DNA from: Roseobacter sp.
GTDB lineage: Bacteria; Pseudomonadota; Alphaproteobacteria; Rhodobacterales; Rhodobacteraceae
Reading direction: 5' to 3'
DNA: 64,000 bases
Assembly: GCA_011050655.1 (NCBI GenBank)
Contig: DRFG01000092.1
Coordinates: forward strand, 12,053-76,052
Made by a program: the position numbers and the translations under genes. Shown in pieces: positions 1 through 40,456 of the stretch. Numbering within the stretch: position 1 is the stretch's first letter; each line of letters starts with the position of its first letter. The notes under the pieces were generated by a model. It did no database searches. It was not told where the DNA came from and saw nothing but the letters and a program-made list of their open reading frames with translations.

Positions 1-924
1 GTCGATGGCACGATGACGGGCGGTTCGTCGTTTGTGAACTATCTGACCTCGGCGACACTGGCGTTGCAGGCTGGGCTTTGTGATGTGGCGCTGATCTGTT
101 ACGGATCCAATCAGCGTACGGCGTCAGGGCGGCTTGTGACCGCGTCAAAGCTGCCGCCCTACGAAGGGCTGTATAACCCGCGCTATCCGATCTCGGCATA
201 TGCGATGGCTGCGGCGCGGCATATGTATGAATATGGCACGACACGCGAACAACTGGCCGACGTAGCCGTTGCGGCACGCGCCTGGGCCCGGCATAATCCC
301 GAAGCCTTTGAGCGCGACGCGTTGACCCGCGAAGATGTACTGGGTGCGCGTATGGTGGGCGATCCGCTGACCACGCGCGATTGTTGCCTAGTGACCGATG
401 GCGGTGGTGCCATCGTGATGGTGCGGGCCGATCGGGCGCGGGATTTCCCCAAGGCACCAGTCTATGTCCTGGGGTCTGCGGCGGCCAGCAGCCATCGGCA
501 AATCTCGCAAATGCAGGATTTCACGGTTACGGCGGCGCGCGACTCCGGCAAACTTGCCTTTGCGATGGCCGGGGTGACGCCGGGCGATATCGACGTCGTT
601 GAGCTGTATGATGCGTTTACCATCAACACCATCCTGTTTCTCGAAGATCTCGGGTTCTGCGCCAAGGGCGAAGGCGGCGGATTTGTTGCCGATGGCCGGA
701 TCGCGCCGGGCGGGGCGTTGCCAGTCAACACCAATGGCGGTGGGCTGTCATGTGTGCACCCCGGAATGTACGGCATCTTCACGGTGATCGAGGCCGCACG
801 CCAGATCAGAGGTGATGCGCCGGGGTTGCAACAGGATAACGTGGAGCTGGCGCTGGCGCATGGCAATGGTGGGGTATTGTCTAGCCAAGTTACGGCCATT
901 CTCGGCGCGGCCAGCACCGTTTGA
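1..924 (+). CDS. Thiolase-family (SCP-x/Ltp-type) protein, 5'-truncated by the window edge
   Basis: The frame is open from base 1 (VDGTMTGGSSF...). Thiolase-like C-terminus VELYDAFT...LPVNTNGGGLSCVHPGMYG...ALAHGNGG. Confidence 0.85.
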   Translation, partial: VDGTMTGGSSFVNYLTSATLALQAGLCDVALICYGSNQRTASGRLVTASKLPPYEGLYNPRYPISAYAMAAARHMYEYGTTREQLADVAVAARAWARHNPEAFERDALTREDVLGARMVGDPLTTRDCCLVTDGGGAIVMVRADRARDFPKAPVYVLGSAAASSHRQISQMQDFTVTAARDSGKLAFAMAGVTPGDIDVVELYDAFTINTILFLEDLGFCAKGEGGGFVADGRIAPGGALPVNTNGGGLSCVHPGMYGIFTVIEAARQIRGDAPGLQQDNVELALAHGNGGVLSSQVTAILGAASTV

Positions 925-946
925 TTTAAGCAAGGAAAAACCGGAA

Positions 947-1804
947 ATGCCTTTGGATATTGATGCGCTGAACGCTTGGGAATTCAAAGACCTGGAGCAC
1001 AGCTATACCAAGCGGGACACGATGCTTTATGCCCTTGGTCTGGGGTTCGGAGAGGACCCGAACGATGAAAAAGAACTGGCCTATGTCTATGAAGACGGTC
1101 TGCTGGCCGCGCCAAGCATGGCCGTCATTCTGGGATATCCCGGTTTCTGGCTGAGCGACCCGCGCACAGGGGTCGAATGGAAAAAGGTCCTGCACGGTGA
1201 ACAATGGTTGGATGTGTTCAAGCCCCTGCCTGTCGAGGGTAAGGTGATCGGGCGCACCCGGATTGATCATATTTCTGACAAGGGCGAAGGCAAGGGCGCG
1301 GTGCTTCATATCAGCCGCGATATCATTGACGCGGCCAGCAATGAGACGCTGGCGCGGGTTTCGATGTCGACCTTTGCGCGTGGTGATGGCGGCTTCGGTG
1401 GTGAGAAGATTGCTGGGCCTATTCCGGCTACGTTGCCGGATCGGGCACCGGACCATATTTGCGATCTGACCACACTGCCGCGCCAAGCGCTGATTTACCG
1501 ACTGAGCGGTGATTACAACCCACTTCATGCCGACCCGGCGGTTGCGAGATCGGTGGGGTTTGACCGTCCGATCCTTCATGGTCTGGCAACCTATGGTCTG
1601 GGCTGCCGAGCGATCTTGAAGACGATCTGCGACTATGATGCAAGCCGCCTGACCGGTTTGGATGTGCGTTTTTCCGCGCCGGTTTACCCCGGTGAAACTG
1701 TGCGCTTCGAAATCTGGCGGGACGGCACAGAGGTTCGGTTTCGAGCAGTGGTACCCGAACGTAACGTGGTGGTGCTGAACAATGGCGCTGCAAGGCTTGC
1801 CTGA
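947..1804 (+). CDS. Double hot-dog (MaoC/HDE-type) (R)-enoyl-CoA hydratase
   Basis: Hydratase-2 motif YRLSGDYNPLHAD...GFDRPILHGL. Start moved to ATG 947, which follows AAGGA. Confidence 0.9.
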   Translation: MPLDIDALNAWEFKDLEHSYTKRDTMLYALGLGFGEDPNDEKELAYVYEDGLLAAPSMAVILGYPGFWLSDPRTGVEWKKVLHGEQWLDVFKPLPVEGKVIGRTRIDHISDKGEGKGAVLHISRDIIDAASNETLARVSMSTFARGDGGFGGEKIAGPIPATLPDRAPDHICDLTTLPRQALIYRLSGDYNPLHADPAVARSVGFDRPILHGLATYGLGCRAILKTICDYDASRLTGLDVRFSAPVYPGETVRFEIWRDGTEVRFRAVVPERNVVVLNNGAARLA

Positions 1805-1816
1805 GGAGAGAGACAT

Positions 1817-2935
1817 TTGACACAACCGCTTGACGATATTCTGGTGCTGGATTTTAGCACACTTTTGCCCGGTCCGATGGCCACGCTGATGCTGGCCGAA
1901 GCCGGGGCGGAGGTCATCAAACTGGAGCGTCCGGGCTCCGGCGAAGACATGCGCCTGACAGAGCCAATGATCGAGGGCCGCAGTCTGGGCTATGCTATCC
2001 TGAACCGGGGCAAGAAAAGCATCGCGCTGGACCTCAAGGCGGAAGGGGCTGTGGCCAGTTTGCGGTCGCTAATCGAAAAGGCCGATGTTATCGTCGAGCA
2101 ATTCCGTCCTGGCGTCATGGAACGGTTGGGACTGGGGTATGATGCGGTCAGGACGCTTAACTCCAAAATCATCTATTGTTCAATAACAGGGTACGGCCAG
2201 AGCGGCCCGAAACGAGACGTTGCCGGGCATGACATGAACTATGTTGGGGATGCGGGTGTCCTGTCGCTTAGTTCAGGTTCGGTTGACAGTCCGACCGCAC
2301 CGTTTGGTCTGATCGCCGATATCGGCGGGGGAACCTATCCGGCAATCATGAATATCCTGCTTGCGCTGCGCCAGCGCGACAAGACCGGGCAAGGCGTCCA
2401 TCTGGATATCGCCATGTCTGAGGGCGCGTTTGCCTTCGCCTATTGGGCGCACGCCAAGGGGGTCATCGCGGGCGAGCCTATTGAAAATGGCGGTGACAGG
2501 CTGACTGGGGGCAGGGCACGTTACAGGCTCTATTCGGCATCAGACGGCCGACAGGTTGCGGTCGGGGCGCTGGAGCAGAAATTCTGGGACGCATTTTGCA
2601 ATGTCATCGACCTGCCGCGGGACCTGCGCGATGACCTTGCCGATCCAGCGGCGACAAAGGCCGAGGTCGCGCGCCGGATTGTGGTCAAACCATCTGCTCA
2701 TTGGGCACCATTGCTGGAAGCGGCGGATTGCTGCTGCACCATTGTCAAGACACCGGCCGAGGCCGCAGCCGATCCGCATTTCACGGCGCGCGACACGTTC
2801 GGGCGGGTGGTTTCGGTTGGGGGCGAGCAAGTTCCGGCACTGCCTTTGCCGATTGCACCAGAATTTCGCGGGGCAGTCGCCGACAGTCGCGCCGCGCCCG
2901 ATCTGGGTGAGCAAAATGCCGAGTTTGGGTTGTAA
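1817..2935 (+). CDS. CaiB/BaiF class III CoA transferase
   Basis: LDFSTLLPGP, GAEVIKLE, NRGKKSIALDL, QFRPGVMERLGLGY, GHDMNY. TTG start after GAGGAG. Confidence 0.9.
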   Translation: MTQPLDDILVLDFSTLLPGPMATLMLAEAGAEVIKLERPGSGEDMRLTEPMIEGRSLGYAILNRGKKSIALDLKAEGAVASLRSLIEKADVIVEQFRPGVMERLGLGYDAVRTLNSKIIYCSITGYGQSGPKRDVAGHDMNYVGDAGVLSLSSGSVDSPTAPFGLIADIGGGTYPAIMNILLALRQRDKTGQGVHLDIAMSEGAFAFAYWAHAKGVIAGEPIENGGDRLTGGRARYRLYSASDGRQVAVGALEQKFWDAFCNVIDLPRDLRDDLADPAATKAEVARRIVVKPSAHWAPLLEAADCCCTIVKTPAEAAADPHFTARDTFGRVVSVGGEQVPALPLPIAPEFRGAVADSRAAPDLGEQNAEFGL

Positions 2936-2963
2936 ATAGTGGTCGCTGAGGCGTCAGAATAGG

Positions 2964-3004
2964 TTGACGGCTGACGCTGTTTGGAATAATCTAACAAATG
3001 TTAG
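2964..3004 (+). promoter_or_regulatory. Sigma70-type promoter with overlapping palindromic operator
   Basis: TTGACG (2964-2969), 17 bp, TAATCT (2987-2992). Palindrome CTAACAAATGTTAG (2991-3004) overlaps the -10. A 7-bp inverted repeat GCGTCAG/CTGACGC (2951-2977) flanks the -35. Confidence 0.65.
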
Positions 3005-3037
3005 AAACTTGTTTGAATTCCTTTGGGAGGGGTTACA

Positions 3038-3760
3038 ATGTCTGAGCCGATGTCGGAACTTTCCGCTGAAGCGGAACGATTTGTCTCTCCTGCGCACTAT
3101 GTCGATAGCGATAGTAGGGAGGTGCAGGCCTTTGTGATGCGGGCGCTGCGCAACATGGCACCGGATGCATCCAAAAAGGACATGGCAGTGCGCCTGTTTC
3201 AGGCTGTGCGCGACGATTTGCGGTATGATCCCTATACGTTTTCCCTGAACACCGAGGATTATCGGGCAAGTGTTATCGCGGACATGGACTCGGCGTTTTG
3301 CGTGCCCAAGGCGATCCTCCTGGCTGCATGCCTGCGGGCTGTTGGCATTCCGGCAGCACTTGGCTTTGCCGATGTTCGCAACCACTTGAATACGCCCAAA
3401 CTGGCCGAGCTGATGGGCACTGACCTGTTCATCTACCACGGCTATGTTCAGCTTTGGCTGGGTGAATCATCTTTCAAGGTGACCCCGGCCTTCAACATGG
3501 AATTGTGCCAGCGTTTTGGCGTCAAGCCGCTGGAATTTGACGGAGAGCACGACGCGCTGTTTCACGAATTTGACGACACGAACCGCCGCCATATGGAATA
3601 CGTCAATGATCGGGGCTTGTTTGTGGATGCGCCGATGCAGGAGTTCCTGACCGCATTTGGTGAGACATATCCGAAGCTGAAGGAATTCAACCGGCGCAGG
3701 ATTTCCGGTGAGTTCTTTGATGCGGGTTTTGCTAGTCCCGAAGGCTCACCTGCAAAATGA
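3038..3760 (+). CDS. Transglutaminase-like (Cys-His) family protein
   Basis: VRDDLRYDPY, FCVPKAILLAACLRAVGIPA, HGYVQL, KVTPAFN. ATG after GGGAGG. Confidence 0.8.
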   Translation: MSEPMSELSAEAERFVSPAHYVDSDSREVQAFVMRALRNMAPDASKKDMAVRLFQAVRDDLRYDPYTFSLNTEDYRASVIADMDSAFCVPKAILLAACLRAVGIPAALGFADVRNHLNTPKLAELMGTDLFIYHGYVQLWLGESSFKVTPAFNMELCQRFGVKPLEFDGEHDALFHEFDDTNRRHMEYVNDRGLFVDAPMQEFLTAFGETYPKLKEFNRRRISGEFFDAGFASPEGSPAK

Positions 3761-4206
3761 AGTATTTGGAAGATTTCAGTGTTGGTCAGGTTTTCGAATT
3801 TCGCTCTGCGCCGTTGACCAAACAGCAGATCATGGAGTTTGCTCAGGAATGGGACCCTCAGCGTCTGCATACGGATGAAGCCTATGCTGAAGGTATCCAC
3901 GGCGGGCTGATCGCCTCTGGTTTCCAGACACTTCTGACCGTGTTCAAACCTATCATGCAGGACTTGATGGTCGACGTCGCCAACATTGGTGGTATCGGGT
4001 TTGACCAGCTGCGCTGGCTGCGACCAGTGCGCCCAGAAGAACCACTGAATATCCGGATCGAAGTTCAGTCTTTGGTCCCATCGCGCAGCAAGCCTGACCG
4101 GGGTGTTTTGATTTACACGCTCGAAGCGCGAAACCCCGCCGGTGAGTTGGTTATGAGCGTTGAGACCCCAGTGATGATCCAGCGCCGAAAGGAAGACCTG
4201 AAATGA
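3757..4206 (+). CDS. MaoC/NodN-type single hot-dog dehydratase
   Basis: YLEDFSVGQ, WDPQRLHTD (D-x4-H), GLIASG, LRWLRPVRP. ATGA overlap with the upstream gene. Confidence 0.85.
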   Translation: MKYLEDFSVGQVFEFRSAPLTKQQIMEFAQEWDPQRLHTDEAYAEGIHGGLIASGFQTLLTVFKPIMQDLMVDVANIGGIGFDQLRWLRPVRPEEPLNIRIEVQSLVPSRSKPDRGVLIYTLEARNPAGELVMSVETPVMIQRRKEDLK

Positions 4207-5312
4207 CTATGGTACAAGACGAAGACCTACGGCTTTTGCGCGACAGCGTTGGTACGCTGCTGGATCGGGCGGGCGGACTTGGGCGCGCCCGCCGCGTGCG
4301 TGATGACGATACGCCCTGGGACGCGGGTATCTGGCAGGAACTGGCTGCTGCCGGTGTACTGGGGGTCGCAGCCCCCGAAGAGGCCGGGGGGCTTGGTATG
4401 GGGCTGACGGCGGCTGGTGTCGTGGCCGAAGAGATTGGCCGCGTGACCGCGCCTGAGCCGGTGGTGCCGACAATCGGGCTGGCAATCGGGCTGATGCAGC
4501 GGCTGTGCCCGCAGGATCCGATGCTGGAAGCCGCCATCGCTGGCGATGTCGTGTTGGCCGTGGCCTGGCAGGAACGCTGCGCGACGGGCCTATCGGATGA
4601 TATCGAATGCCGTTTTGATGGAACCACACTGACCGGCAGTAAGGATTGGGTGGTGGGGGCCAGTGGTGCGGACCATATTCTGGTCCTCGCCGAGGGGCCG
4701 CGAGGTTCGGTTCTGGTGCGCATCGCGGCGGATGCGTCTGGTCTGCTGATGCAGACCCGGCTGCAATCGGATGCCAGCGAGCTTTGGGGCATAAGCTTTG
4801 CGGACACCCCGGCAGAGGTGCTGGCCGAAGGCGCGCAGGTCACTGATGCGCTGACTAATGCCGTTGCGGATACGACCGCATTAGCCGCCGCCGAACTGGT
4901 CGGGCTAAGCGGTACAGCGCTGGTACTGACACTGGACTATATCAAAACACGCGAACAATTTGACAAGCCGATTGGTTCGTTTCAGGTGATTCAGCACCGT
5001 GCCGTTGATATGCATGTCTCGCAGGAAGTTTCCCAGGCCGCCGTACGCGAGGCGCTGGCCGCGATGGATCAAGCAGGTTCGACGCTAGAACGGGTGCGAC
5101 AGGCAAGCCGCGCCAAGGCCCGCGCCTGTACCGCCGCGCAAAAAATCACCCGCGAGGCGATCCAGCTGCATGGCGCGGTCGGGTACACGGATGAATTCGA
5201 TGTCGGCATGTTGCTGAACCGGGCGCTTGTCCTGTCGGCGTGGCTGGGGGATGCGGCGTTTCATCGCCGCCGCTGGCTGGATGCAAATGAAACAGAGGTG
5301 GCTGCGCAATGA
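4203..5312 (+). CDS. Acyl-CoA dehydrogenase, PimD-like subunit of a heteromeric pair
   Basis: TREQFDKPIGSFQVIQH, AIQLHGAVGYTDE. Degenerate N-terminal FAD motif; coupled to the next ACAD. Confidence 0.85.
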   Translation: MTMVQDEDLRLLRDSVGTLLDRAGGLGRARRVRDDDTPWDAGIWQELAAAGVLGVAAPEEAGGLGMGLTAAGVVAEEIGRVTAPEPVVPTIGLAIGLMQRLCPQDPMLEAAIAGDVVLAVAWQERCATGLSDDIECRFDGTTLTGSKDWVVGASGADHILVLAEGPRGSVLVRIAADASGLLMQTRLQSDASELWGISFADTPAEVLAEGAQVTDALTNAVADTTALAAAELVGLSGTALVLTLDYIKTREQFDKPIGSFQVIQHRAVDMHVSQEVSQAAVREALAAMDQAGSTLERVRQASRAKARACTAAQKITREAIQLHGAVGYTDEFDVGMLLNRALVLSAWLGDAAFHRRRWLDANETEVAAQ

Positions 5313-6454
5313 CCGACTGGAATGGAATAAGCGATGAAGAGTTTCGCCGAGAGGTTAGGGCTTTTTTCGAGGCCGAATATCCCGAAGAACTACGTCACCT
5401 GCCGCACCGACCTAAGTTTGCCGAGATTGAGCACTGGCATGTGAAGCTACACGCCAAAGGCTGGGTCGCACCTGCCTGGCCCATCGAATTTGGCGGCATG
5501 GGCTTGGAGGCGGCCAAACTGCTGATCTTTTACGAAGAACAGCAACACTATGGCGTCAACCGGGGTCGAGACATGGGGATCCAGATGGTTGGCCCCTTGA
5601 TTATCAAATTCGGCACCGAGGCACAAAAGGATTATTGGCTGCCGCGCATCCTGAGCTGTGAAGACATCTGGTGTCAGGGTTATTCCGAACCCGGAGCAGG
5701 CTCTGATCTGGCAAATCTGCGTACCAGTGCTGTGATTGATGGCGATGATTTCGTCATCAACGGCCAGAAGATCTGGACCACGATGGCGCATGACGCCACC
5801 CACATCTTCATGCTCGTGCGTACCGACCCCGATGCGCCTAAAAAACAACAGGGCATCAGTTTTGTTCTGGCCAGCATGGATCAGCCAGGCGTCGACGTGC
5901 GCACGATCACCACGCTGGCTGGCGAGACCGAGTTTTGCGAGGTGTTTTTTGACAACGCCCGCACCCCACGTGCCAACCTGGTGGGCGAGATCAACAAGGG
6001 TTGGAGCATGGCCAAGGCGCTGCTCAGCTTTGAGCGGATATTCATCGGCTCACCCGGCCTTGCGCAGAATGCACTGGGTCAGCTTGAAACTTTTGCCCGT
6101 GGTCGCGGTGCCTTTGACGACCCCGTGTTTCGGGATCGCTACGCCGAGGCGGCGCTGGACGTTGAAGACCACGCAGCCCTATACAGCCGCTTTGCCGATC
6201 AGCTTAAGCGCGGAGAGACATTGGGAGCAGATGTCTCGATGTTGAAAATCTGGGTGACCGAGACCTATCAGCGGATATCGGAACTGATGATCGAGGTCGC
6301 AGGCCCCGATGGTGGCAGTATAGGGCCGCTGCAGGTGGGCAATGTCGGGGTCGATGTGTTGGCCAGTTTTTACAAAGCACGGCCGACGACAATCTACGGC
6401 GGCTCAAACGAAATCCAACGAAATATCTTGTCTAAGGCCGTTTTGGGCCTGTGA
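5309..6454 (+). CDS. Acyl-CoA dehydrogenase, PimC-like subunit
   Basis: WCQGYSEPGAGSDLA, INGQKIWTT, FCEVFFD, TIYGGSNEIQRNI. Confidence 0.9.
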   Translation: MTDWNGISDEEFRREVRAFFEAEYPEELRHLPHRPKFAEIEHWHVKLHAKGWVAPAWPIEFGGMGLEAAKLLIFYEEQQHYGVNRGRDMGIQMVGPLIIKFGTEAQKDYWLPRILSCEDIWCQGYSEPGAGSDLANLRTSAVIDGDDFVINGQKIWTTMAHDATHIFMLVRTDPDAPKKQQGISFVLASMDQPGVDVRTITTLAGETEFCEVFFDNARTPRANLVGEINKGWSMAKALLSFERIFIGSPGLAQNALGQLETFARGRGAFDDPVFRDRYAEAALDVEDHAALYSRFADQLKRGETLGADVSMLKIWVTETYQRISELMIEVAGPDGGSIGPLQVGNVGVDVLASFYKARPTTIYGGSNEIQRNILSKAVLGL

Positions 6455-6483
6455 CGATCATTTGCCAAACAGAGGAAACTAAA

Positions 6484-7293
6484 ATGTTTGACTACGCAAC
6501 GAAGTACCCAAAATTGTCTTTCGACTACCCGGCAGATCGCGTTTTGCGCATCACTTTTGACCGGCCAGAGACCTATAACTCGGTTGATGCCGAAACCCAC
6601 ACCCAAATGACCGATATCTGGATCGACATTGACCGCGATCAGGACATCAATGCAGTAATCGTTACAGGCCGGGGCAAAGCGTTTTCGGCAGGCGGCGACT
6701 TCAGTTTGATCGAAGGCATCACCGGCAATTTCGACACGGTGATGAAGACATGGAAAGAAGCCAAGGATTTGGTTTACAACATCATCAATTGTAACAAGAT
6801 TATCATCTCGGCGATCAACGGCCCGGCGGCTGGTGCGGGCCTTGTTGTGGGTATCCTTGCCGATATCTCGATCGCGGGAAAACGCGCCAAAATCGTTGAT
6901 GGCCACCCGCGTTTGGGTGTCGCTGCGGGCGATTGTGCCGCGATCATCTGGCCCCTCCTGTGCGGCATGGCCAAAGCCAAATACTACCTGTTGACCTGCA
7001 AGCCGATAAGCGGTGAAGAGGCCGAACGTATTGGCATGGTGTCGATGTGCGTCGAGGATGACGAACTTGAACAGATCTCGATTGATACCGCGACTGAAAT
7101 GGCCACGGGATCGCAAAGCGCACTTCGCTGGACCAAATACTCACTGAACAACTGGCTGCGTCAGGCCGGGCCTATCTTTGACGCTTCGACCGCCCTGGAG
7201 ATGCTGGGATTTATGGGCGATGACGTAAAAGAAGGTGTACTTTCACACCGCGAAAAACGCGCGCCAAATTTCCGCAAAGATTGCCCGCTCTAG
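6484..7293 (+). CDS. Crotonase-superfamily protein with a His/Asp dyad (possible C-C hydrolase)
   Basis: AFSAGGD and [10 protein letters not shown] oxyanion motifs; [15 protein letters not shown] 6484 after GAGGA. Confidence 0.85.
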
Positions 7294-7319
7294 GTCAACC
7301 AACAACAAGGGAGGCCACC

Positions 7320-8516: not shown

Positions 8517-8551
8517 AGTCTTAGCAGAAGACACGACGACTGCGCACCGGG

Positions 8552-9406: not shown

Positions 9407-9410
9407 TGGC

Positions 9411-30012: not shown

Positions 30013-30029
30013 CAAGCAATCGTTTGCTT
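30013..30029. promoter_or_regulatory. Candidate TetR operator upstream of the tetR-mutase operon
   Basis: CAAGC-AATC-GTTTG (30013-30026), overlapping AAGCAA-N4-TTGCTT (30014-30029). Two TTGACA hexamers lie upstream at 29984 and 29993. Confidence 0.45.
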
Positions 30030-30044
30030 ATTTAAGGAATCACG

Positions 30045-31119: not shown

Positions 31120-31131
31120 AGAAAGGCAGAA

Positions 31132-32826: not shown

Positions 32827-32831
32827 TCACC

Positions 32832-33797
32832 GTGCAGGATCAAACCGCCGAAAAGCCGGGGCTTTTGGCGCGTCTGTTGGCCGGACAAACCGCCGCACTT
32901 GCCCGCGCAATAAGCATCGTCGAGCGTGATGGTCCAACTGTCAGTGCGCTGTTGAAAGCAATCCAGCCGCATCTGGGCCGCGCGATCGTGGTTGGCTTTA
33001 CCGGCCCGCCGGGTGCTGGAAAATCGACGCTGGTGAATGCGTTCATCGGGGAAATGCGGGGGCGGGGGCGGACAGTCGCAGTCGCCGCTGTCGATCCTTC
33101 CAGCCCGATTACCGGCGGCGCGGTTCTGGGTGACCGGATCCGGATGGCAGAGCACACGATGGACGCCGGCGTGTTCATCCGCTCGCTTGCATCGCGGGGG
33201 CATCTGGGCGGCCTGTCGGCTTCGGCCGCGCGGGTGGCTGACCTTATGGACGCTGCGGGCTTTGACGTGATCGTTCTGGAGACCGTGGGTGCAGGGCAAT
33301 CCGAGGTCGAGATGGCGGAAATGGCGGATGTCAGGATTGTCATCTCGGCGCCGGGCCTGGGGGATGACGTTCAGGCGATCAAGGCAGGCATTCTCGAGAT
33401 CGCCGACATTCTGGTCGTCAATAAGTCCGATTTGCCGCTGGCCAAACGGACAGTTGGTCAGTTGCAGGCAATGTTGGCCCTGCGCGCGCCGGGCGACTGG
33501 AAAGTGCCGGTCCTGGCGACCAATGCAGTCGATCGGACGGGCCTGTGCGAACTGGCCGACGCAGTCGATCACCGGGCCGCGACGCGCAAAATGAAAGGCC
33601 CGCGTGATGCCCTTGGCGGGCGTACCCGGCGCTTGCTGGCACAATCCGTCGCCAAATATGCAGAACATCGCGTTCTGAACGATACATGCGCAACCATCGA
33701 CGCGGTGGTTTCGGACCTTCAACAGGCAGGAATCGGTCTGGACGATGCAATTACAAAGGTCCTGATGCGACTATGCGAAAGCCAAGACAATGGATGA
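32832..33797 (+). CDS. meaB: MeaB/ArgK-family GTPase chaperone of B12 mutases
   Basis: GFTGPPGAGKST, AVDPSSP..GGAVLGDRIRM, FIRSLASRG, ETVGAGQSE, QAIKAGILE, VNKSD. Confidence 0.9.
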   Translation: MQDQTAEKPGLLARLLAGQTAALARAISIVERDGPTVSALLKAIQPHLGRAIVVGFTGPPGAGKSTLVNAFIGEMRGRGRTVAVAAVDPSSPITGGAVLGDRIRMAEHTMDAGVFIRSLASRGHLGGLSASAARVADLMDAAGFDVIVLETVGAGQSEVEMAEMADVRIVISAPGLGDDVQAIKAGILEIADILVVNKSDLPLAKRTVGQLQAMLALRAPGDWKVPVLATNAVDRTGLCELADAVDHRAATRKMKGPRDALGGRTRRLLAQSVAKYAEHRVLNDTCATIDAVVSDLQQAGIGLDDAITKVLMRLCESQDNG

Positions 33798-34224
33798 TTC
33801 TGCAACCGACCTACCGTCACTTGAACTGTTGAAGGCGCAATTTGTGGCGCGCGACGGTTATATGCAGTCGTTGGGCGCTGAACTGGCCAAGATGGGTCGC
33901 GGTCATGCAATTGTCCGGATGCCGGTCCGTCAGGACAGTCTGAACTTCAACGGAACCTGCCATGGCGGCGCGATTTTTTCAGTCGCGGATTGTGCCTTTG
34001 GGGTGGCGTCGAACAGCTATGGCACACTGGCGGCAGGCATTGACGTTCACATCACCTACAACGCCGCAGCCCGGCTTGGGGATGTATTGACCGCGACAGC
34101 AACCGAAGTTTCTCGGTCTCGCAAGATCGCGGTCTACGAAGTGACGGTCAGCGGCGACACGGCAGGGCATATAGCGTCCTTTACAGGCACGGTCTATATC
34201 ATTGGCCACAAGAATTTTACCTGA
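33790..34224 (+). CDS. PaaI-type hot-dog thioesterase
   Basis: LNFNGTCHGGAIFSVADCAFGVASNS. Confidence 0.88.
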   Translation: MDDSATDLPSLELLKAQFVARDGYMQSLGAELAKMGRGHAIVRMPVRQDSLNFNGTCHGGAIFSVADCAFGVASNSYGTLAAGIDVHITYNAAARLGDVLTATATEVSRSRKIAVYEVTVSGDTAGHIASFTGTVYIIGHKNFT

Positions 34225-34237: not shown

Positions 34238-34274
34238 TTGACAGGATGTCGCCCGACACCTAACAAGTGTTAGG
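34238..34274 (+). promoter_or_regulatory. Promoter with a perfect palindromic operator upstream of tetR (autoregulation candidate)
   Basis: TTGACA (34238-34243), 17 bp, TAACAA (34261-34266), which lies inside CCTAACA-AG-TGTTAGG (34259-34274). Confidence 0.65.
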
Positions 34275-34297: not shown

Positions 34298-34921
34298 ATG
34301 GCACTCTCGAAAACAGTTGCACAAAACGCCGAGGTAGGCCGCACGGGCATTCTGGATGCGGCCGCCTTGCTGTTAGGCCGCCAAGGATACGGGGCGGTAT
34401 CTCTGCGCATGATCGCCGAGGCCGCGGGGATCAAGGCCGGCAGCATTTACTATCACTTCGCCTCTAAAGATGACATTATCACGGAAATTCTTGATGCAGG
34501 AATCCAAGCGGTTCATGACGAGGTCCGCGACAGGGTGGCGGCCTTGAGTGCAGATGCGCCCGCGCGTGACGTATTTCGTGCAGTACTCCGTGGGCATCTA
34601 TGTGCTTTGCTGGAACATGGCGCTTACACCTCGGCCAACGTGCGCATCTTCGGCCAAGTGCCACCTGTAGTGCGCGACGCCAACCTACCGGTTCGCCGCG
34701 CCTATGAGGCTTTCCTGGATAATCTGTTGTCAGAATTGAAGGTGCGGGACGCGATCCGCAGCGATGTCAATCTGCCCCGGTTTCGCTTGCTGCTGATCGG
34801 CGCGCTGAACGCGACGCTTGAATGGTTCGACCCCCAGAAGGGCAGCGCCGAGGATCTTGCCGATGACTATGCCGACACATTCTTGAACGGGATTCTCAGC
34901 CAAAGCGGAGACAACACATGA
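34298..34921 (+). CDS. TetR-family regulator
   Basis: AEAAGIKAGSIYYHFASKDDII, SANVRIFG, IGALNATLEWF. Confidence 0.92.
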   Translation: MALSKTVAQNAEVGRTGILDAAALLLGRQGYGAVSLRMIAEAAGIKAGSIYYHFASKDDIITEILDAGIQAVHDEVRDRVAALSADAPARDVFRAVLRGHLCALLEHGAYTSANVRIFGQVPPVVRDANLPVRRAYEAFLDNLLSELKVRDAIRSDVNLPRFRLLLIGALNATLEWFDPQKGSAEDLADDYADTFLNGILSQSGDNT

Positions 34922-36516
34922 GCCGCATCGCAACCCGGATAGATACCCGATCCCCGGTTTTTGAACAAAACTGGGCGCAATCACAAACCTTGTTGGGAAC
35001 TCTGCGAACACGCATGGCCTTTGCCACAACTGGCGGCGCGGAAAAGCTGCGCGCCCGCCACCATGAGCGCGGAAAGCATCTGGTGCGCGACCGGATCGAC
35101 CGATTGATCGACCCGGGCACGGCCTTTCTGGAACTGTCGCCACTTGCCGCCTGGGGCCAGTATGACAATCAGGTCCCCGCGGCCGGAATCGTTACCGGTA
35201 TCGGCCTTGTGAAGAGCAAGCATGTGGTTATCATCGCCAATGATGCTACCGTCAAGGGCGGCAGCTTTTTCCACGAGACAGTGAAAAAACACCTGCGCGC
35301 GCAGGAGATCGCCGAACAGAACCGTATGCCCTGCCTTTATCTGGTGGATTGCGGCGGGGCCTATCTGCCGGAACAGGACCGGGTGTTCCCCGACCGCGAC
35401 CATTTCGGAAATTCGTTTCATCGCCAGTGCCGCATGTCGGCTGCCGGATTGCCGCAGATATCGGTGGTGTTTGGCGGCTGTACCGCCGGTGGTGCCTATA
35501 TTCCGGCGCTCAGCGATCAGGTGATCATGGTTGATGGCAACGCACGCATCCATCTGGGCGGCCCGTCAATCGTCAAGGTTGCGATCAACGAAGCGGTTGA
35601 CGGCGAGACTCTAGGCGGCGCCGCGATGCACACGCGGATCTCTGGCGTAAGCGACCATCTGGTGGCGGATGAAGACCAGGCGTTGGCGCTGGCCCGCACC
35701 CTGATCGGCGAGACGAATTTTGAGCGTAAGCCAGCAAAGGTCGCGCCGGTGCTGTCGCCGCGATACCCCGCATCAGAGCTTGGCGGGGTGATCAGCGCCG
35801 ATCCCAAAATGCCCTATGACGTGCGCGAAATTATTGCGCGCACCGTGGATGACAGCGGTTTCAGCGAATTCAAACCTGAATGGGGCGAAACGGTTGTCTG
35901 CGGCACCGCCCGCATACATGGTCATATGGTAGGGATAATCGGCAATAACGGCGCGCTATTATCGCAATCGGCACTGAAAGCCGCGCATTTCATAACCCTT
36001 TGCGATCAGCGCAACATCCCGCTTCTGTTTCTGCATAATATCACCGGCTTCATGGTTGGAACTGTCGCCGAGCGCGAAGGCATAGCCAAGAACAGCGCCA
36101 AGATGGTTTACGCACAGGCAGTCGCGCGGGTGCCCAAGCTGTCGGTCATCGTCGGCGGTTCTTATGGCGCGGGCAATTACGGCATGTGCGGGCGCGGCTT
36201 TCGGCCGAACTTCCTGTTCGCATGGCCAAGCGCGGTGCTGGCCACGATGTCGGCCAATATCGCCAGCAACGTGATGCTGGAACTGCGCCGGACCAATGTC
36301 AAAGCCCCCACCGCCACGCAAGAAGAACTGGACGAAATCGAATCCCGCGTGCGCGCCCAGTACGGCGAACAATCGGACCCGTATTTCGCCACCTCACGGC
36401 TTTGGGATGATGGCATCATCGAGCCTGCGCAAACCCGTGATGTGTTGGGTCTTTGTCTGTCGATCGTGTCCAGCACACCTGATGCAATGGGACACTCCCC
36501 AGTTTACCGAATGTAG
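34918..36516 (+). CDS. Acyl-CoA carboxylase beta subunit, MCC/GCC-like, set 2
   Basis: ANDATVKGGSF, KKHLRAQEIA, CTAGGAYIP, GGSYGAGNYGMCGR, PVYRM. Confidence 0.92.
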   Translation: MSRIATRIDTRSPVFEQNWAQSQTLLGTLRTRMAFATTGGAEKLRARHHERGKHLVRDRIDRLIDPGTAFLELSPLAAWGQYDNQVPAAGIVTGIGLVKSKHVVIIANDATVKGGSFFHETVKKHLRAQEIAEQNRMPCLYLVDCGGAYLPEQDRVFPDRDHFGNSFHRQCRMSAAGLPQISVVFGGCTAGGAYIPALSDQVIMVDGNARIHLGGPSIVKVAINEAVDGETLGGAAMHTRISGVSDHLVADEDQALALARTLIGETNFERKPAKVAPVLSPRYPASELGGVISADPKMPYDVREIIARTVDDSGFSEFKPEWGETVVCGTARIHGHMVGIIGNNGALLSQSALKAAHFITLCDQRNIPLLFLHNITGFMVGTVAEREGIAKNSAKMVYAQAVARVPKLSVIVGGSYGAGNYGMCGRGFRPNFLFAWPSAVLATMSANIASNVMLELRRTNVKAPTATQEELDEIESRVRAQYGEQSDPYFATSRLWDDGIIEPAQTRDVLGLCLSIVSSTPDAMGHSPVYRM

Positions 36517-36525
36517 GACCGTACT

Positions 36526-37326
36526 ATGACCAGCCGGACATTCCAGACCATCACTGTTGAAACGGACACGCGCGGCGTGGCGCGCCTGACGCTGAACCGG
36601 CCTGCCAAGCACAACGCGTTGAACGGTCAGCTGATTGACGAGCTCAAACAAGCCGCAGATTTGTTGGCGTCGGATGACAGCGTCCGGGTTGTTGTTCTCA
36701 CCGGCGAAGGCAAAAGCTTTTGCGCGGGAGGTGATTTCAACTGGTTCAAAGGCAATGCCGCAGCCGACCGTGCCACCCGTATCCGCGAAAGCAGCAAGCT
36801 GGCGCATATGCTGAATGCGTTGAATGCGCTGCCCAAACCGCTGATCGGGCGGATCCAGGGCCCGGCCTATGGCGGCGGGGTCGGGATGATTTCAGTTTGT
36901 GACATCGCCGTGGGTGTCGATACCGCACGCTTTGGTCTGACAGAGGTGCGTCTGGGGCTGATCCCGGCCAATATCTCGCCTCATGTGGTGGCACGCATCG
37001 GCGCGGCCAATGCGCGGGCCACGATGCTGTCGGGGGCCTTGTTCAGCGCAGCAAATGCCGAAAAGATCGGGTTGCTGAACGAAACGGTAACGCCTGACGA
37101 TCTGGACGCGCGGATTGACTCGATCATCGCCGACCATCTTGAGGCGGCCTTGGGTGCAGTCGGTGAAACCAAGCGACTGATTGCCTACGTCGCCAGCCAC
37201 AGTATCAACGACAGCATGATGTATACCGCCGATCGCCTGGCGGACGCATGGGAAACCGACGAAGGCACCACCGGCATCAACAGTTTTCTGGGCAAGACAC
37301 TGCCCCCATGGCGGACCGGCAAATGA
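36526..37326 (+). CDS. Methylglutaconyl-CoA-hydratase-like (LiuC/AtuE-type) crotonase
   Basis: SFCAGGD, AYGGGVGMISVCD (first Glu absent), FGLTEVRLGLIPANISP. Lies between carboxylase beta and alpha. Confidence 0.82.
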   Translation: MTSRTFQTITVETDTRGVARLTLNRPAKHNALNGQLIDELKQAADLLASDDSVRVVVLTGEGKSFCAGGDFNWFKGNAAADRATRIRESSKLAHMLNALNALPKPLIGRIQGPAYGGGVGMISVCDIAVGVDTARFGLTEVRLGLIPANISPHVVARIGAANARATMLSGALFSAANAEKIGLLNETVTPDDLDARIDSIIADHLEAALGAVGETKRLIAYVASHSINDSMMYTADRLADAWETDEGTTGINSFLGKTLPPWRTGK

Positions 37327-39311
37327 ATTTCTCAACCGTTTTGATCGCCAACCGGGGCGAGATTGCCCTGCGCCTTGTGCGGGCCTGTCAGGGTCTGGGC
37401 CTGCGCGCAGTCGCAGTCTATTCCGACGCGGACAGGGAGGCACCGCATGTGGTTGCCGCCGAGACGGCGGTGCATATCGGCCCGTCCGAGGCCGCCCAGA
37501 GCTATCTGGATGGTGCCCGGATTATTGCGGCTGCCAAACAGGCCGGCGCGCAGGCTGTTCATCCCGGTTATGGGTTTCTGGCCGAAAATGCAGGTTTCGC
37601 GCAGGCCTGCGCTGATGCCGGTCTGGTCTTCGTTGGACCGTCGCCGGAAAACATTGCGCTGATGGGCTCAAAAATCGCGGCCAAAGCGGTTGCGGTTGCG
37701 GCAAACGTGCCGGTTGTGCCGGGCTACTACGGCGATGATCAGTCCGACGACCGGCTGCTGGCCGAGGCGCATATCATCGGCGTGCCGCTATTGATCAAAG
37801 CCAGCGCCGGGGGCGGCGGGCGCGGTATGCGACAGGTGCATGATCTGGCCGATTTTACCACCGAACTGATTGCCGCTCGGGCCGAGGCTGAGGCTGCCTT
37901 CGGCGATAGCCAGATTTTGCTGGAACGCTATGTCGGCACCGCGCGCCATATCGAGGTGCAGATCCTTGCGGACCAGCAGGGTAATGTGCGCCACTTGTTT
38001 GAACGCGATTGTTCGCTGCAACGAAACCATCAGAAAGTGATCGAAGAGGCACCTGCGCCACTACTGCCAGCCGACGTTCGCGCCAGCCTTCTGGAAAGCG
38101 CGGTGCGGCTGACCAAGGGCATCGGCTATGACAGCGCGGGTACGGTTGAGTTCCTGCTGGATGCCGATACCGGCGAATACTATTTTCTCGAAATGAACAC
38201 CCGCCTGCAGGTGGAACATCCGGTGACAGAGGCGGTCACCGGCATCGACATTGCCGCATGGCAGTTGCGTGTCGCCGGGGGCGAGTCGCTACCATTCGCG
38301 CAAGACGATATCACCTGCTCCGGCTGGGCGATCGAGGCCCGCATCGCCGCCGAAGACCCGGCCAACAACTATCGCCCCGAGATCGGAAAAATCACCAGCT
38401 ACGCCGCCCCCGACATGCCCGGCTTGCGGCTCGATAGCGGTGTGCGCGCGGGCAGCATTGTCAGCCATTATTACGATTCCATGCTGGCCAAGCTGATCAG
38501 TTTGGCACCGGATCGCGCGTCGGCGATCCGGCTTTTGGATCAGGGGCTGGCCAAGTATCACATCACCGGGCCCGGCACCAATATCGCCTTTCTGCGCGAT
38601 CTTCTGGCCTTGCCGGATTTTGTCGCCGGAACGCACAGCACCGCATCCCTTGGTGCGGCTTATCCCGATGGCTGGCACGCGCCCATACCCGGCCACCATC
38701 AGTGGGCCGAGGCCGTTCTGACAAACTTTCTGGCCAGCAATGACCGGGGCGGACATGATCCCTGGACCGCATTGGGTGCCTGGCGCGTGACCGAACCGTC
38801 CGGTCGACCAGGTGGCGCCATTTACCGGATCAACGGTGAAGATGCCCGCATCGAGGGGCGCGACGGGACCTATATCGTCACCCTTCATGATCTGGCCCCT
38901 ATTGAAATGGAAAACGCCAGCCTGCGTGGCGGCATACTGTCTTATGAAACTGACGGCATGCGCCATAGCGCAAGCGCCGAAATCGACGGTGAGAAAGTTT
39001 CGTTGGATGGTCAAACCGGTCGCGCCTCGTTTGTTGTTCTGGACAGCGACAGGATCATTCAAGCGGCTGGCGAGGCCGCACTGGGTGGCGGCAATCAGGT
39101 GCGCGCACCGATGCCCGGCCTTGTCTCGGACGTTCTGGCCCAACCCTGTGATGTTGTCATCGCCGGACAACCGGTTGTTGTAATCGAGGCCATGAAACTT
39201 TTGCAAACCCTGACCGCGCCCTGTGCGGGCACTGTCGCCCAAGTCAATTATGCAGCCGGAGAAAACGTCGATATGGGCGCCGTGCTGATCACCATCGACC
39301 CCGAGGAATGA
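37323..39311 (+). CDS. Acyl-CoA carboxylase alpha subunit, set 2
   Basis: LIANRGEIA, HPGYGFLAEN, RDCSLQRNHQK, EMNTRLQVEH, biotin motif EAMKL. Start at MNFST. Confidence 0.92.
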   Translation: MNFSTVLIANRGEIALRLVRACQGLGLRAVAVYSDADREAPHVVAAETAVHIGPSEAAQSYLDGARIIAAAKQAGAQAVHPGYGFLAENAGFAQACADAGLVFVGPSPENIALMGSKIAAKAVAVAANVPVVPGYYGDDQSDDRLLAEAHIIGVPLLIKASAGGGGRGMRQVHDLADFTTELIAARAEAEAAFGDSQILLERYVGTARHIEVQILADQQGNVRHLFERDCSLQRNHQKVIEEAPAPLLPADVRASLLESAVRLTKGIGYDSAGTVEFLLDADTGEYYFLEMNTRLQVEHPVTEAVTGIDIAAWQLRVAGGESLPFAQDDITCSGWAIEARIAAEDPANNYRPEIGKITSYAAPDMPGLRLDSGVRAGSIVSHYYDSMLAKLISLAPDRASAIRLLDQGLAKYHITGPGTNIAFLRDLLALPDFVAGTHSTASLGAAYPDGWHAPIPGHHQWAEAVLTNFLASNDRGGHDPWTALGAWRVTEPSGRPGGAIYRINGEDARIEGRDGTYIVTLHDLAPIEMENASLRGGILSYETDGMRHSASAEIDGEKVSLDGQTGRASFVVLDSDRIIQAAGEAALGGGNQVRAPMPGLVSDVLAQPCDVVIAGQPVVVIEAMKLLQTLTAPCAGTVAQVNYAAGENVDMGAVLITIDPEE

Positions 39312-40456
39312 CCATGACCAACCCATATTTTTCCGACGAACTGACCATGCTGCGCGAGCAAATCCGCCGTTTTGTCGAGGCCGAGATCGTGCCGCACGGC
39401 GACGCCTGGGAAGAAGCAGGCAAAGTCCCGCGCGAGGTATTCGCCAAGATGGGCGAGCTGGGCTTTCTTGGAATGCGTTACCCTGAGAAATATGGCGGAG
39501 CGGATCTGGATACGATGGCCAGCGTCGTGCTGGCTGAAGAGCTGGGCCGCTGCACATTCGGAGGCTTTTCAGCTGACCTGCTGGTGCACACGGATATGGC
39601 CAGTCCGCATCTGGCCAATGTAGGCACACCCGAACAAATGGCACGCTGGATGCCGGGTATCACGTCAGGCAAAAGCGTCTGTGCCGTTGCCGTAACCGAA
39701 CCCGGTGCCGGGTCAGACGTGGCAGGAATGCGCACACGCGCGGTCCGCGACGGCAATGGCTGGGTGATCAACGGTACCAAAATGTTCATCACTAATGGTG
39801 TGCATGGCGATCTGTTTTTCGTCGCTGCCAAAACCAACACCGAAGCAAAAGGTTCGCGCGGGGTCACGATCTTTGCAGTCGAAAAAGGCACAGCGGGATT
39901 TTCGGTCGGCAAGAAGCTGAACAAGACTGGATGGCTGTGTTCGGATACTGCCGAACTGGTTTTTGACAACGTCCGTGTCACAGGCGACCATATTCTGGGC
40001 GAGGTTGATAAGGGTTTCTACGCCATCATGAAGAACTTTCAGAACGAACGAACGGTTCTGGGAGCGATGGCCATGGGTGAGGCGCAGAAAGCCATCGAAC
40101 TGACGCTGGATTATGTGAAGGATCGTCCTGCCTTTGGCGGTGTTCTATGGGACAAACAGGTGATCCGTCACCGACTTGCCGAGCGCGCCGCCCAGGTCGA
40201 GGCTGGCCGGCAACTAGTCTACAGCGCGGCGTGGAAAGACGCTCAGGGGATGGATTGTGTCAAAGAGGTTTCGATGGTCAAGGCCTATTGCGGCGATCTG
40301 GTCAACAAGGTGATGTATGATTGCGTTCAGTTTCACGGCGGCATGGGCTACATGCGCGAAACCCCGGTTGAACGGATGTCTCGCGACGCGCGTATTCAGG
40401 CCATTGGCGGCGGCGCAACCGAAGTGATGTTGGAAGAAATTGCCAAGCGGCTTTAG
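39308..40456 (+). CDS. Acyl-CoA dehydrogenase
   Basis: AVAVTEPGAGSDVA, NGTKMFITNG, FQNER, QFHGGMGYM, IGGGATEVM. Confidence 0.92.
   Translation: MTMTNPYFSDELTMLREQIRRFVEAEIVPHGDAWEEAGKVPREVFAKMGELGFLGMRYPEKYGGADLDTMASVVLAEELGRCTFGGFSADLLVHTDMASPHLANVGTPEQMARWMPGITSGKSVCAVAVTEPGAGSDVAGMRTRAVRDGNGWVINGTKMFITNGVHGDLFFVAAKTNTEAKGSRGVTIFAVEKGTAGFSVGKKLNKTGWLCSDTAELVFDNVRVTGDHILGEVDKGFYAIMKNFQNERTVLGAMAMGEAQKAIELTLDYVKDRPAFGGVLWDKQVIRHRLAERAAQVEAGRQLVYSAAWKDAQGMDCVKEVSMVKAYCGDLVNKVMYDCVQFHGGMGYMRETPVERMSRDARIQAIGGGATEVMLEEIAKRL

Follow-up and report, generated by a model that had tools for sequence, protein, structure and literature searches.

Carbon atoms that carry four carbon substituents block beta-oxidation, and we know of few biological solutions to this problem. 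Reportedly, Kitanishi, Cracan and Banerjee characterised Xaut_5043/5044 as an isovaleryl-CoA/pivalyl-CoA mutase (PCM) in J Biol Chem in 2015, and for denitrifying Thauera a pivalate route via isovaleryl-CoA into the Liu pathway is reported. Here we analysed 64,000 nucleotides of Roseobacter sp. (contig DRFG01000092.1, positions 12,053 to 76,052 of the forward strand; hereafter the window), in which a cassette with a predicted mutase of this type lies within a dense run of acyl-CoA genes (1-40456; open reading frame (ORF) calling, NCBIfam, Pfam and the RefSeq annotation of a twin plasmid agree). We divide the run into module A (1-8516, plus strand), module B (8552-22649, minus strand), the mutase cassette (30045-34224) and module C (34298-40456); a FadH gene and a unit of NmrA-like, ligase, BadH-like and TetR2x genes lie between module B and the cassette. 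At slightly better than even confidence, we read these genes as a TetR regulon for the catabolism of methyl-branched acyl-CoAs, with a pivalyl-type mutase that would feed a Liu-like route. An earlier sequence-only reading of this DNA had listed the gene types of the run and an operator common to several promoters, and had pointed to pivalyl-CoA mutase in connection with the B12 mutase; all three were borne out, the gene types, with the corrections given below, by NCBIfam, Pfam and the annotation of the 99.8%-identical plasmid, the operator and the mutase as described below.

The cassette shares with the Xanthobacter PCM operon the split subunits, MeaB, a PaaI/PaaD thioesterase, an upstream TetR, the gene order and identical clade-specific active-site motifs. 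Downstream of the Xanthobacter operon lie genes for a PaaK-like ligase, another ligase and a Liv-type ABC transporter; the window cassette, in contrast, is embedded in a larger operator-linked regulon of a marine conjugative plasmid and precedes a module with a methylcrotonyl-CoA carboxylase (MCC)-type enzyme and a long-chain acyl-CoA dehydrogenase (LCAD)-type acyl-CoA dehydrogenase (ACAD). The two enzymes also differ in pocket-adjacent residues, and the activity of the window mutase is a prediction from sequence. The Liu/Atu clusters of Pseudomonas (PMC4673880) resemble the window in having beta-subunit, hydratase and alpha-subunit genes in this order, accompanied by an ACAD and a TetR-type regulator, in gamma-carboxylating carboxylases of the MCC lineage and in an enzyme of the 3-hydroxy-3-methylglutaryl (HMG)-CoA lyase family. 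They differ from it in that the window has two paralogous MCC-type sets, neither of the geranyl-CoA carboxylase (GCC) type, an LCAD-like ACAD instead of an isovaleryl-CoA dehydrogenase (IVD), the lyase in another module, and in module B an additional AliB-like ACAD, PaaK-like ligase, short-chain dehydrogenase/reductase (SDR) and short citrate-synthase-fold lyase.

Ali/Bad of Rhodopseudomonas palustris and Mrc, the monoterpene ring-cleavage cluster of Castellaniella defragrans (PMC4109377), are matched by a clustered and co-conserved set of an AliB-like ACAD, a crotonase, a BadH-like SDR, a CoA ligase, a 2,4-dienoyl-CoA reductase and MaoC hydratases. In contrast to these systems, the window unit is joined to a carboxylase/lyase operon, its AliB and BadH homologues fall under the family cut-offs, and none of its crotonases is a BadI/MrcE-type 2-oxocyclohexanecarboxyl-CoA hydrolase. 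Finally, 2-methyl-branched beta-oxidation (AMACR/Mcr, MFE-2, SCPx) and the actinobacterial steroid-type ACAD/MaoC/Ltp sets are like module A, which has a racemase-like CaiB protein, a double-hotdog hydratase-2, a heteromeric ACAD and an SCP2-type thiolase with DUF35; module A differs in being bacterial and plasmid-borne and in its extra EchA15-type crotonase, transglutaminase-like protein and PaaK-like ligase.

All these kinds of enzyme (PCM, MCC/Liu, Ali/Bad-like, branched-chain beta-oxidation) are known, and it is the combination that is new, not the chemistry. As far as we could check, what is undescribed is the assembly into one operator-linked mobile Roseobacter regulon, the cassette behaviour of the mutase operon with its clade-wide operator, and the nine-gene module B operon that joins an MCC-type carboxylase to lyases of the HMG-CoA lyase and citryl-CoA lyase types.

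The mutase cassette

The cassette encodes, on the plus strand throughout, a TetR regulator (30045-30698), a B12-binding small subunit (30691-31119; TIGR00640, 126 bits) whose DxHxxG motif reads GLDGHDRG, a 564-aa mutase large subunit (31132-32826; TIGR00641, 482 bits), the chaperone MeaB (32832-33797; TIGR00750, 292 against a cut-off of 241 bits) and a PaaI-type thioesterase (33790-34224). A separate small subunit with a large subunit of ~560 aa is the organisation of the PCM-type clade. Among solved structures, the nearest to the large subunit is HcmA (368 bits), followed by methylmalonyl-CoA mutase (MCM). At the position of Tyr89 in MCM and Ile90 in 2-hydroxyisobutyryl-CoA mutase (HCM) the window mutase has Leu, within RQLIGLG; where other mutases carry (A/D)FD(L/M) it has IIPCN, that is, ‘PC' for ‘FD'; and Asn occupies the position of MCM Arg207 and HCM Gln208. 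Xaut_5043 and the window mutase both carry RQLIGLG, (I/L)(I/L)PC and a motif ending in (V/I)ANHxFYRL, while HcmA and MCM have I/Y, D/A-F-D and Q/R at the equivalent pocket positions. In an alignment of 20 sequences (relatives of 60-90% identity) C120, N197-D200, S203, H204 and H209-F211 were invariant and the rest were conserved at >=90%. Such a hydrophobic, carboxylate-free pocket fits what would be expected for a neutral branched acyl group.

A tblastn search of all PLSDB plasmids returned six records of 60-100% identity, whereas the rest of the top 40 listed were at <=41% and 411 records were below 60%; because of this gap between the six plasmid records and the remainder the clade looks discrete. 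Among the six is plasmid pXAUT01 of Xanthobacter autotrophicus Py2; its Xaut_5043 has 60.5% identity to the large subunit, and its gene order is that of the window: Xaut_5045 (TetR), Xaut_5044 (B12 subunit, 74%), Xaut_5043, Xaut_5042 (MeaB, 63%) and Xaut_5041 (PaaD-type thioesterase). This TetR-headed operon with adjacent MeaB and a hotdog thioesterase is common to pXAUT01 and most of 85 loci compared (see below). By identity, motifs and operon architecture, the window mutase is assigned to the Xaut_5043/5044 clade, that is, to the pivalyl-CoA mutase type. An enzyme of this type would be expected to interconvert pivalyl-CoA and isovaleryl-CoA but not to isomerise isobutyryl-CoA. An exact-protein lookup of the window mutase matched no record.

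Relatives of the mutase gave at least 585 matches in GTDB species genomes, and we compared 85 loci, consisting of the best 80 of these matches (58-84% identity) and five from exact-protein look-ups. The best 80 span Alpha-, Beta- and Gammaproteobacteria, Nitrospira, Actinomycetota and SAR324. The conserved core is formed by the large subunit (all 85 loci), the small subunit (81), MeaB (70), TetR (67) and PaaI (39); other neighbours include thiolase (14), ACADs (13), Liv-type ABC transporters (9-12), a long-chain ligase (11), PrpD/MmgE (9) and PaaK-like ligases (8).

The reaction is reversible, as known for the family, and the mutase could in principle work biosynthetically, turning isovaleryl-CoA into pivalyl-CoA for tert-butyl starter units. 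We regard this as highly improbable, since no genes for polyketide synthases, nonribosomal peptide synthetases or fatty-acid synthases lie nearby and the neighbours in the 85 loci (thiolase, ACADs, ligases, Liv-type ABC uptake) are catabolic.

The other modules of the window are rare near the mutase, yet each recurs there. Module C accompanies the mutase in Rhodobacteraceae (L005, L006, L008, L009, L010 and L014), with or without the ligase/BadH-like/TetR2x unit; it follows directly in L005 and L006, and after ~8 kb in L010 and L014. The tail of module B stands beside the mutase in Nisaea (L001), with 67-90% identity for the alpha subunit, HMG-CoA lyase homologue, SDR, citrate-synthase-like lyase and ACAD, and 44% for the Htd2-type hydratase. 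Module A stands beside it in a Bradyrhizobium metagenome-assembled genome (L068, 64-86% identity), an orthologue of the module C ACAD (62%) follows MeaB directly in a SAR324 locus (L076), and the arrangement of operator plus TetR_C (the module C regulator) follows the mutase in Bradyrhizobium L039 too. In L003 and L004 the cassette is alone.

Operators and regulators

A 14-bp TetR-type operator, CTAACAnnTGTTAG, has three perfect copies (2991, 22696 and 34260) and one copy with a single mismatch (28498), all of them in promoter gaps. A shuffle control with <=2 mismatches allowed gave 0.69 expected matches, and a perfect palindrome with 12 specified bases is expected ~0.004 times per 64 kb. The first copy (CTAACAAATGTTAG, 2991-3004) precedes the second half of module A and has equivalents in Bradyrhizobium L068 and Sagittula L092. 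The same sequence at 22696-22709 occupies the divergent promoter of the AliB-like and FadH genes, the variant CTAACATCTGTTTG (28498-28511; equivalents in L006, L092 and L157) the divergent BadH-like/TetR2x promoter, and CTAACAAGTGTTAG (34260-34273) lies 25 bp upstream of TetR_C. Sagittula, Ruegeria and Bradyrhizobium also have the operator, as do 52 of 80 metagenome loci, where 67 sites per 1.06 Mb compare with ~0.06 expected. Two additional copies lie upstream of the window start in the near-identical locus L088. Because their promoters carry this common operator, modules A, B and C and the ligase/BadH-like unit are best read as one regulon. We infer that the operator is bound by TetR2x, a tandem double TetR (28554-29855, plus strand), and/or by its paralogue TetR_C.

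The cassette appears to have an operator of its own. A palindrome, CAAAC-N4-GTTTG, stands upstream of the cassette TetR, exact and at a fixed relative position in 40 of 88 loci; loci carrying it (L003-L083) span many phyla, with the palindrome ~1.1 kb upstream of the large-subunit gene. The window has a degenerate copy with two mismatches, CAAGCAATCGTTTG (30013-30026), 19 bp upstream of the cassette TetR. The repressor that the cassette encodes probably has this palindrome as its operator.

Synteny of the modules

We scanned metagenomes with TetR2x as the anchor and obtained 39 loci of >=15 kb. The BadH-like gene stood beside TetR2x in 39 of 39, the Acs-like ligase in 32, FadH in 29, the AliB-like ACAD (76-94% identity) in 29 and the crotonase ECH_B in 21; the mutase cassette was there in 4, and module C in about 8, three of them without mutase. 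Plasmid p5 of Sagittula sp. MA-2 carries electron-transfer flavoprotein (ETF) genes, modules A and B, FadH, the NmrA-like gene, ligase, BadH-like SDR and TetR2x, together with five operator copies, and lacks the mutase cassette and module C while being otherwise syntenic. In Bradyrhizobium L091 the nine-gene module B operon has the identical order, with no mutase within 10 kb of it. Module B and FadH are also found at ~77% nucleotide identity on other Roseobacter-group plasmids (H43-H52; 60 records matched part of the query), none of which belongs to the six that carry a PCM-type mutase of >=60% identity.

In L100, TetR2x is followed by a gap of 339 bp and then by the operator and TetR_C. The cassette (4.4 kb) fills the gap between TetR2x and TetR_C in the window, L096, L108, L113 and L115, and is absent from it in L100, L147 and L157. 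As the gap is occupied in some loci and empty in others, the cassette can be seen as an accessory insertion into a conserved regulon. The synteny counts and the Sagittula and Bradyrhizobium loci rule out the mutase as an obligatory partner of module A, B or C. Judged by synteny, the region is a set of four separately conserved modules and not one obligatory pathway. Its core, by the same measure, is module B plus FadH and the NmrA-ligase-BadH-like-TetR2x unit, often with module A, a widespread marine unit whose predicted substrates are methyl- or alpha-branched acyl-CoAs and possibly alicyclic ones.

This modularity could mean that the plasmid is a toolbox of independent pathways for different acids, under a general TetR that senses acyl-CoAs much as FadR or PsrA do, with no intermediates passed between modules. 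Indeed, each module stands alone somewhere (module B in L091, B with FadH in H43-H52, A with B in Sagittula, the cassette in L003 and L004), and the cassette has its own regulator and operator. We nevertheless consider this rather unlikely: each of modules A, B and C turns up again next to mutases of the clade in unrelated genera, at 62-90% protein identity, module C has no lyase of its own while module B has one, and the operator with TetR_C follows the mutase in Bradyrhizobium L039.

Module C, the carboxylases and a proposed route

Module C (plus strand) consists of TetR_C (34298-34921), an MCC-type beta subunit (34918-36516), a LiuC/AtuE-type hydratase (36526-37326), a carboxylase alpha subunit (37323-39311) and an LCAD-type ACAD (ACAD_C, 39314-40456). 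The hydratase is of the PRK07468 type (373 against a cut-off of 350 bits); the AtuE model gave merely 214 against 426. With the alpha (14457-16478) and beta (16489-18096) subunits of module B, on the minus strand, there are two biotin carboxylase sets in the run (14457-18096 and 34918-39311), and their beta subunits are ~48% identical to each other. Both beta subunits scored 584-588 bits against MCC-beta of P. aeruginosa and 411-428 against GCC-beta (584 and 411 for module B). MCC-beta has a Phe and a 3-residue insertion in the N-domain pocket that are absent from GCC-beta (PMC4673880), and in the MCC/GCC comparison such features exclude bulky, geranyl-size substrates (PMC4673880). In this discriminating segment, where GCC-beta is 3 residues shorter, both window subunits aligned with P. 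aeruginosa MCC-beta without gaps, and both keep the phenylalanines of (H/Q)FG and (I/S)F, although the mapping of ‘Phe191' onto the HFG phenylalanine uses human numbering and is uncertain. The second Phe is followed by His in both window proteins and by Phe or Tyr in MCCs. By scores and segment alike, both carboxylases are classed as MCC-type, and GCC identity is ruled out for either. ACAD_C scored 311 bits with 2PG0 and 298 with human LCAD, against 229-231 for IVDs, and lacks a Glu at the MCAD E376 position (GGGATE), like the LCAD and IVD types. A canonical Liu cluster was therefore rejected for module C, as its ACAD is LCAD-type and not an IVD.

The cassette lies directly upstream of this carboxylase/hydratase/ACAD set, which makes a sequence of ‘mutase, dehydrogenate, carboxylate, hydrate, lyse' plausible. 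A ligase would activate a 2,2-dimethyl acid with a quaternary alpha-carbon, such as pivalate; the mutase would move the thioester carbon to give a 3-methylacyl-CoA (isovaleryl-CoA in the case of pivalate); ACAD_C would desaturate the latter; the MCC-type carboxylase would add a carboxyl to the gamma-methyl group; the LiuC-type hydratase would hydrate the product; and the HMG-CoA lyase homologue of module B would split it into acetyl-CoA and a 3-oxoacid. The cassette thus probably lets the cell also process carbons with four carbon substituents. Gene identities, clade membership, synteny statistics and operators are observed; for substrates, flux direction and the pairing of TetRs with operators we infer from these.

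A number of observations weigh against this route. The operator of the cassette differs from that of the rest, and co-induction of the cassette with the regulon is therefore not implied. A carboxylase lies within 10 kb of the mutase in <=5 of the 85 loci. ACAD_C is not a canonical IVD, and the HMG-CoA lyase homologue is found solely in module B, not beside module C. The window mutase and that of Xanthobacter, reportedly the native PCM, are ~60% identical and differ near the pocket (IIPCNSVY against LLPCCSGF, ANHM against ANHQ), with the window residues being those of the clade majority; the window enzyme may in fact act on a larger 2,2-dialkyl acyl-CoA. The expression data described below are contig depths that carry no growth-condition labels.

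A larger substrate is also the starting point of a more far-reaching idea, namely that the island gives alga-associated Roseobacters a mobile, operator-linked regulon for the mineralisation of natural terpenoid acids with gem-dimethyl or quaternary carbons, for instance carotenoid and apocarotenoid ring fragments (geronic and cyclogeranic-type acids) and other isoprenoid acids. AliB/BadH/FadH and module A would take the alpha-branched or ring carbons, the mutase would resolve 2,2-dimethyl blocks of acyl-CoAs larger than pivalyl-CoA, and the two MCC-type carboxylase/lyase sets would strip the resulting beta-methyl groups. We think this distinctly unlikely; if true, the route would be undescribed, and B12-dependent rearrangement of quaternary carbons would be a common step of marine carbon turnover. 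The reading that we prefer, a branched acyl-CoA regulon with a Liu-like route, has consequences of its own. The PCM-type cassette is widespread, and in Roseobacters it appears plugged into a conjugative-plasmid regulon for branched acyl-CoAs. The two operators, three TetRs, three ligases and two MCC-type carboxylases are testable candidates, useful for finding the natural quaternary or branched substrates of the sea and the B12 dependence of their turnover, and the parts may be of use in the bioremediation of pivalate and neo-acids.

The AliB/BadH-like unit and modules A and B

The core unit starts at the head of module B, on the minus strand, with the AliB-like ACAD (21468-22649), the crotonase ECH_B (20692-21471), an ACAD (19515-20675) and a PaaK-like ligase (18093-19484). 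Divergent from it is a FadH/OYE-type 2,4-dienoyl-CoA reductase (22741-24780, plus strand; profile match and plasmid annotation), followed on the minus strand by an NmrA-like protein (24799-25653; profile/Pfam and annotation), an Acs/acetoacetyl-CoA-synthetase-like ligase (25650-27587) and the BadH-like SDR (27686-28447).

The sequence-only reading had suggested, as an example, one chained alicyclic route in which the mutase isomerises 1-methylcyclohexanecarboxyl-CoA to cyclohexylacetyl-CoA, which is taken through the carboxylase and lyase and is then opened by Ali/Bad enzymes and a ‘PimCD' pair to pimelate. The route draws on real features. The AliB-like and BadH-like proteins are specifically nearest to AliB (TIGR03207, 520.9 bits over the full length; next family 222) and BadH (TIGR03206, 367.8 bits; next family 226), they co-occur with the ligase and the dienoyl-CoA reductase in 29 to 39 of the 39 TetR2x loci, the set is reminiscent of the ring pathways Bad/Ali and Mrc (PMC4109377), and the common operator links the modules. 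However, both proteins fall below their equivalog cut-offs (575.35 and 431.2 bits, respectively), so that the first, for example, is by its scores a close AliB relative and not a certified equivalog. No BadI-type 2-oxocyclohexanecarboxyl-CoA hydrolase, on which ring opening to pimelate would rest, was among the 25 best NCBIfam families of any of the three window crotonases (EchA15-like, generic and LiuC-like). The supposed PimCD pair is a distant heteromeric ACAD that reaches half of the cut-off for PimC (TIGR03204, 300.5 against 623.85 bits) and a fifth of that for PimD (TIGR03203, 134.3 against 652.7). In both carboxylases the discriminating segment is of the MCC type, with its Phe and lacking the deletion seen in GCC, and the label ‘MCC/GCC-type' stands in its first half only. 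The mutase is accessory: 35 of the 39 loci with the AliB/BadH unit, the Sagittula plasmid and the Bradyrhizobium module B operon are without the cassette. A single alicyclic chain is thus very improbable. What survives of the proposed island for quaternary or beta-blocked acids is the weaker form of a co-regulated island, with tightly linked AliB- and BadH-like genes; co-occurrence elsewhere was found inasmuch as each module stands beside the mutase in at least one distant genome, and failed inasmuch as the cassette is in just 4 of 39 TetR2x loci.

The favoured reading, with methyl-branched substrates, draws on module A as well, which looks like a set for 2-methyl-branched beta-oxidation because of its racemase-like CaiB protein, MFE-2-type hydratase-2 and SCP2-type thiolase with DUF35. 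All its genes are on the plus strand. The SCP2/SCPx-type thiolase (13-924; PRK06158, NCBIfam 539 against a cut-off of 421 bits; Pfam Thiolase_C_1) is truncated by the window start and is preceded on the plasmid by a DUF35/OB-fold gene. It is followed by a double-hotdog (R)-specific hydratase of the MFE-2 hydratase-2 type (947-1804; Pfam MFE-2_hydrat-2_N and MaoC_dehydratas) and the CaiB-family protein (1817-2935), whose nearest solved relatives are the alpha-methylacyl-CoA racemases of M. tuberculosis (PDB 2G04 and 1X74, 176 bits), with CoA-transferases at <=161 bits; as 176 against 161 bits separates the two narrowly, it is a candidate racemase-like protein. The second half holds a transglutaminase-like protein (3038-3760) and a small MaoC dehydratase (3757-4206), both by Pfam and plasmid annotation, the small (4203-5312; TIGR03203) and large (5309-6454; TIGR03204) subunits of the heteromeric ACAD, the EchA15-type crotonase ECH_A (6484-7293; EchA15-like at 306 bits, MenB-type at ~80-85) and a PaaK-like acyl-CoA ligase (7320-8516; plasmid annotation).

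Module B supplies the AliB-like ACAD, the crotonase, an MCC-type carboxylase and lyases of the HMG-CoA lyase and citryl-CoA lyase types, with the BadH-like dehydrogenase encoded nearby. Its crotonase ECH_B is generic, and neither ECH_A nor ECH_B is BadI-like or MenB-like. Beyond the head and the carboxylase, it encodes on the minus strand the HMG-CoA lyase family protein (13501-14460), which passes its subfamily cut-off (PRK05692, 273 against 246 bits; Pfam HMGL-like, 122 bits), an SDR (PRK07791, 12576-13481) and a tail made up of a short citrate-synthase-fold ‘citryl-CoA lyase' (11782-12576), a CoA-transferase (10580-11782) whose nearest relatives are formyl-CoA transferase and SUGCT-type transferases, an ACAD (9411-10577) and an Htd2/FAS1-type hydratase (8552-9406). 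Altogether the run has seven ACADs.

The citrate-synthase-fold lyase is found at 73-95% identity across many Alphaproteobacteria and in Alcanivorax (for example, L089 Paracoccus, L090 Alcanivorax and L091 Bradyrhizobium), where an ACAD and an Htd2-type hydratase repeatedly accompany it; PrpD, an HpcH-type lyase and TRAP transporters may or may not be present. This neighbourhood suggests an uncharacterised, widespread pathway for the cleavage of tertiary-alcohol acyl-CoAs.

Long ORFs at 22696-23958, 24799-26067 and 32691-33722 were rejected as high-GC artefacts that are antisense to or overlap annotated genes; in an all-against-all comparison, equivalent antisense ORFs grouped across loci too.

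Replicon, variation and expression

Bases 1-24000 are 99.8% identical to NZ_CP040754.1, a 147.5-kb conjugative plasmid (MOBP/MPF_T) of Sulfitobacter sp. BSw21498, a host from Svalbard seawater, and the last 20 kb instead match a Pseudosulfitobacter pseudonitzschiae plasmid, NZ_CP022419.1 (95.5%). As the two ends match different plasmids, the replicon is a mosaic of them. The mutase large subunit is 99.6% identical in protein sequence to the gene on NZ_CP040754.1 and 96.8% to that on the P. pseudonitzschiae plasmid, which comes from a Skeletonema culture. Near-identical copies of 30.7-36.5 kb were found in metagenomes of seawater, algae, plastisphere, marsh and ballast water.

On the plasmid the island extends >=18 kb beyond the window start (L088; NZ_CP040754.1, 82-100 kb), so that 1-40456 makes up most of a catabolic island that spans more than 60 kb of a conjugative Roseobacter plasmid. 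The upstream genes in L088 encode the DUF35/OB-fold protein, a CoA-transferase, ETF alpha and beta, two crotonases, SDRs, a MaoC protein, an ACAD, a lipid-transfer-type thiolase and a Liv-type ABC transporter with an embedded AMP-ligase, as beside the Xanthobacter mutase. For the part inside the window, our best reading is that about 35 co-regulated genes serve methyl-branched, fatty-acid-like compounds.

A strain variant (X26, X27, X29 and the P. pseudonitzschiae plasmid) lacks 8294-12576, with the hydratase, ACAD, CoA-transferase and citrate-synthase-like lyase of the module B tail, and diverges at 29855-31293; the divergence starts directly after the TetR2x stop codon and the sequences rejoin within the large-subunit gene.

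All modules were covered, at uneven depth, by contigs of two seawater metatranscriptomes (X24 and X25) and two cDNA-like runs (X29 and X31) that bear remnants of SMART and poly-A adaptors, indicating that the window genes are transcribed in nature. X26 and X27, with flat depth and long contigs, were treated as DNA-like and rejected as evidence of expression.

Genes downstream of the island

After module C, a block at 40709-44727 encodes a luciferase-family protein, an Atu2307-type luciferase-like (LLM) monooxygenase, a glutathione S-transferase, an NAD(P)H-binding protein and a LigB-type extradiol dioxygenase. The block also follows module C in the metagenomic plasmid-like contig L005 (19372-21680). 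Related sites are at ~13.9 kb in L003 and L013, and a Granulosicoccaceae genome has a LigB homologue (57%) ~2 kb beyond MeaB. A link of this block to the ring cleavage of tert-butyl-substituted aromatics is conceivable.

The catabolic genes are followed by a defence island (45000-64000). It contains a CBASS-type oligonucleotide cyclase (47555-48667; PADLOC, 402 bits), a 1135-aa SMC/LmuB-like ATPase with an SbcD-like partner (49428-54013), an AriA-like ATPase (54309-56189) and a complete Shango set composed of SngC (56358-58532), SngB (58542-59849) and SngA (59842-62427). This defence part is 95.5% identical to NZ_CP022419.1, and the Sulfitobacter plasmid has Qat and HEPN genes farther downstream instead.

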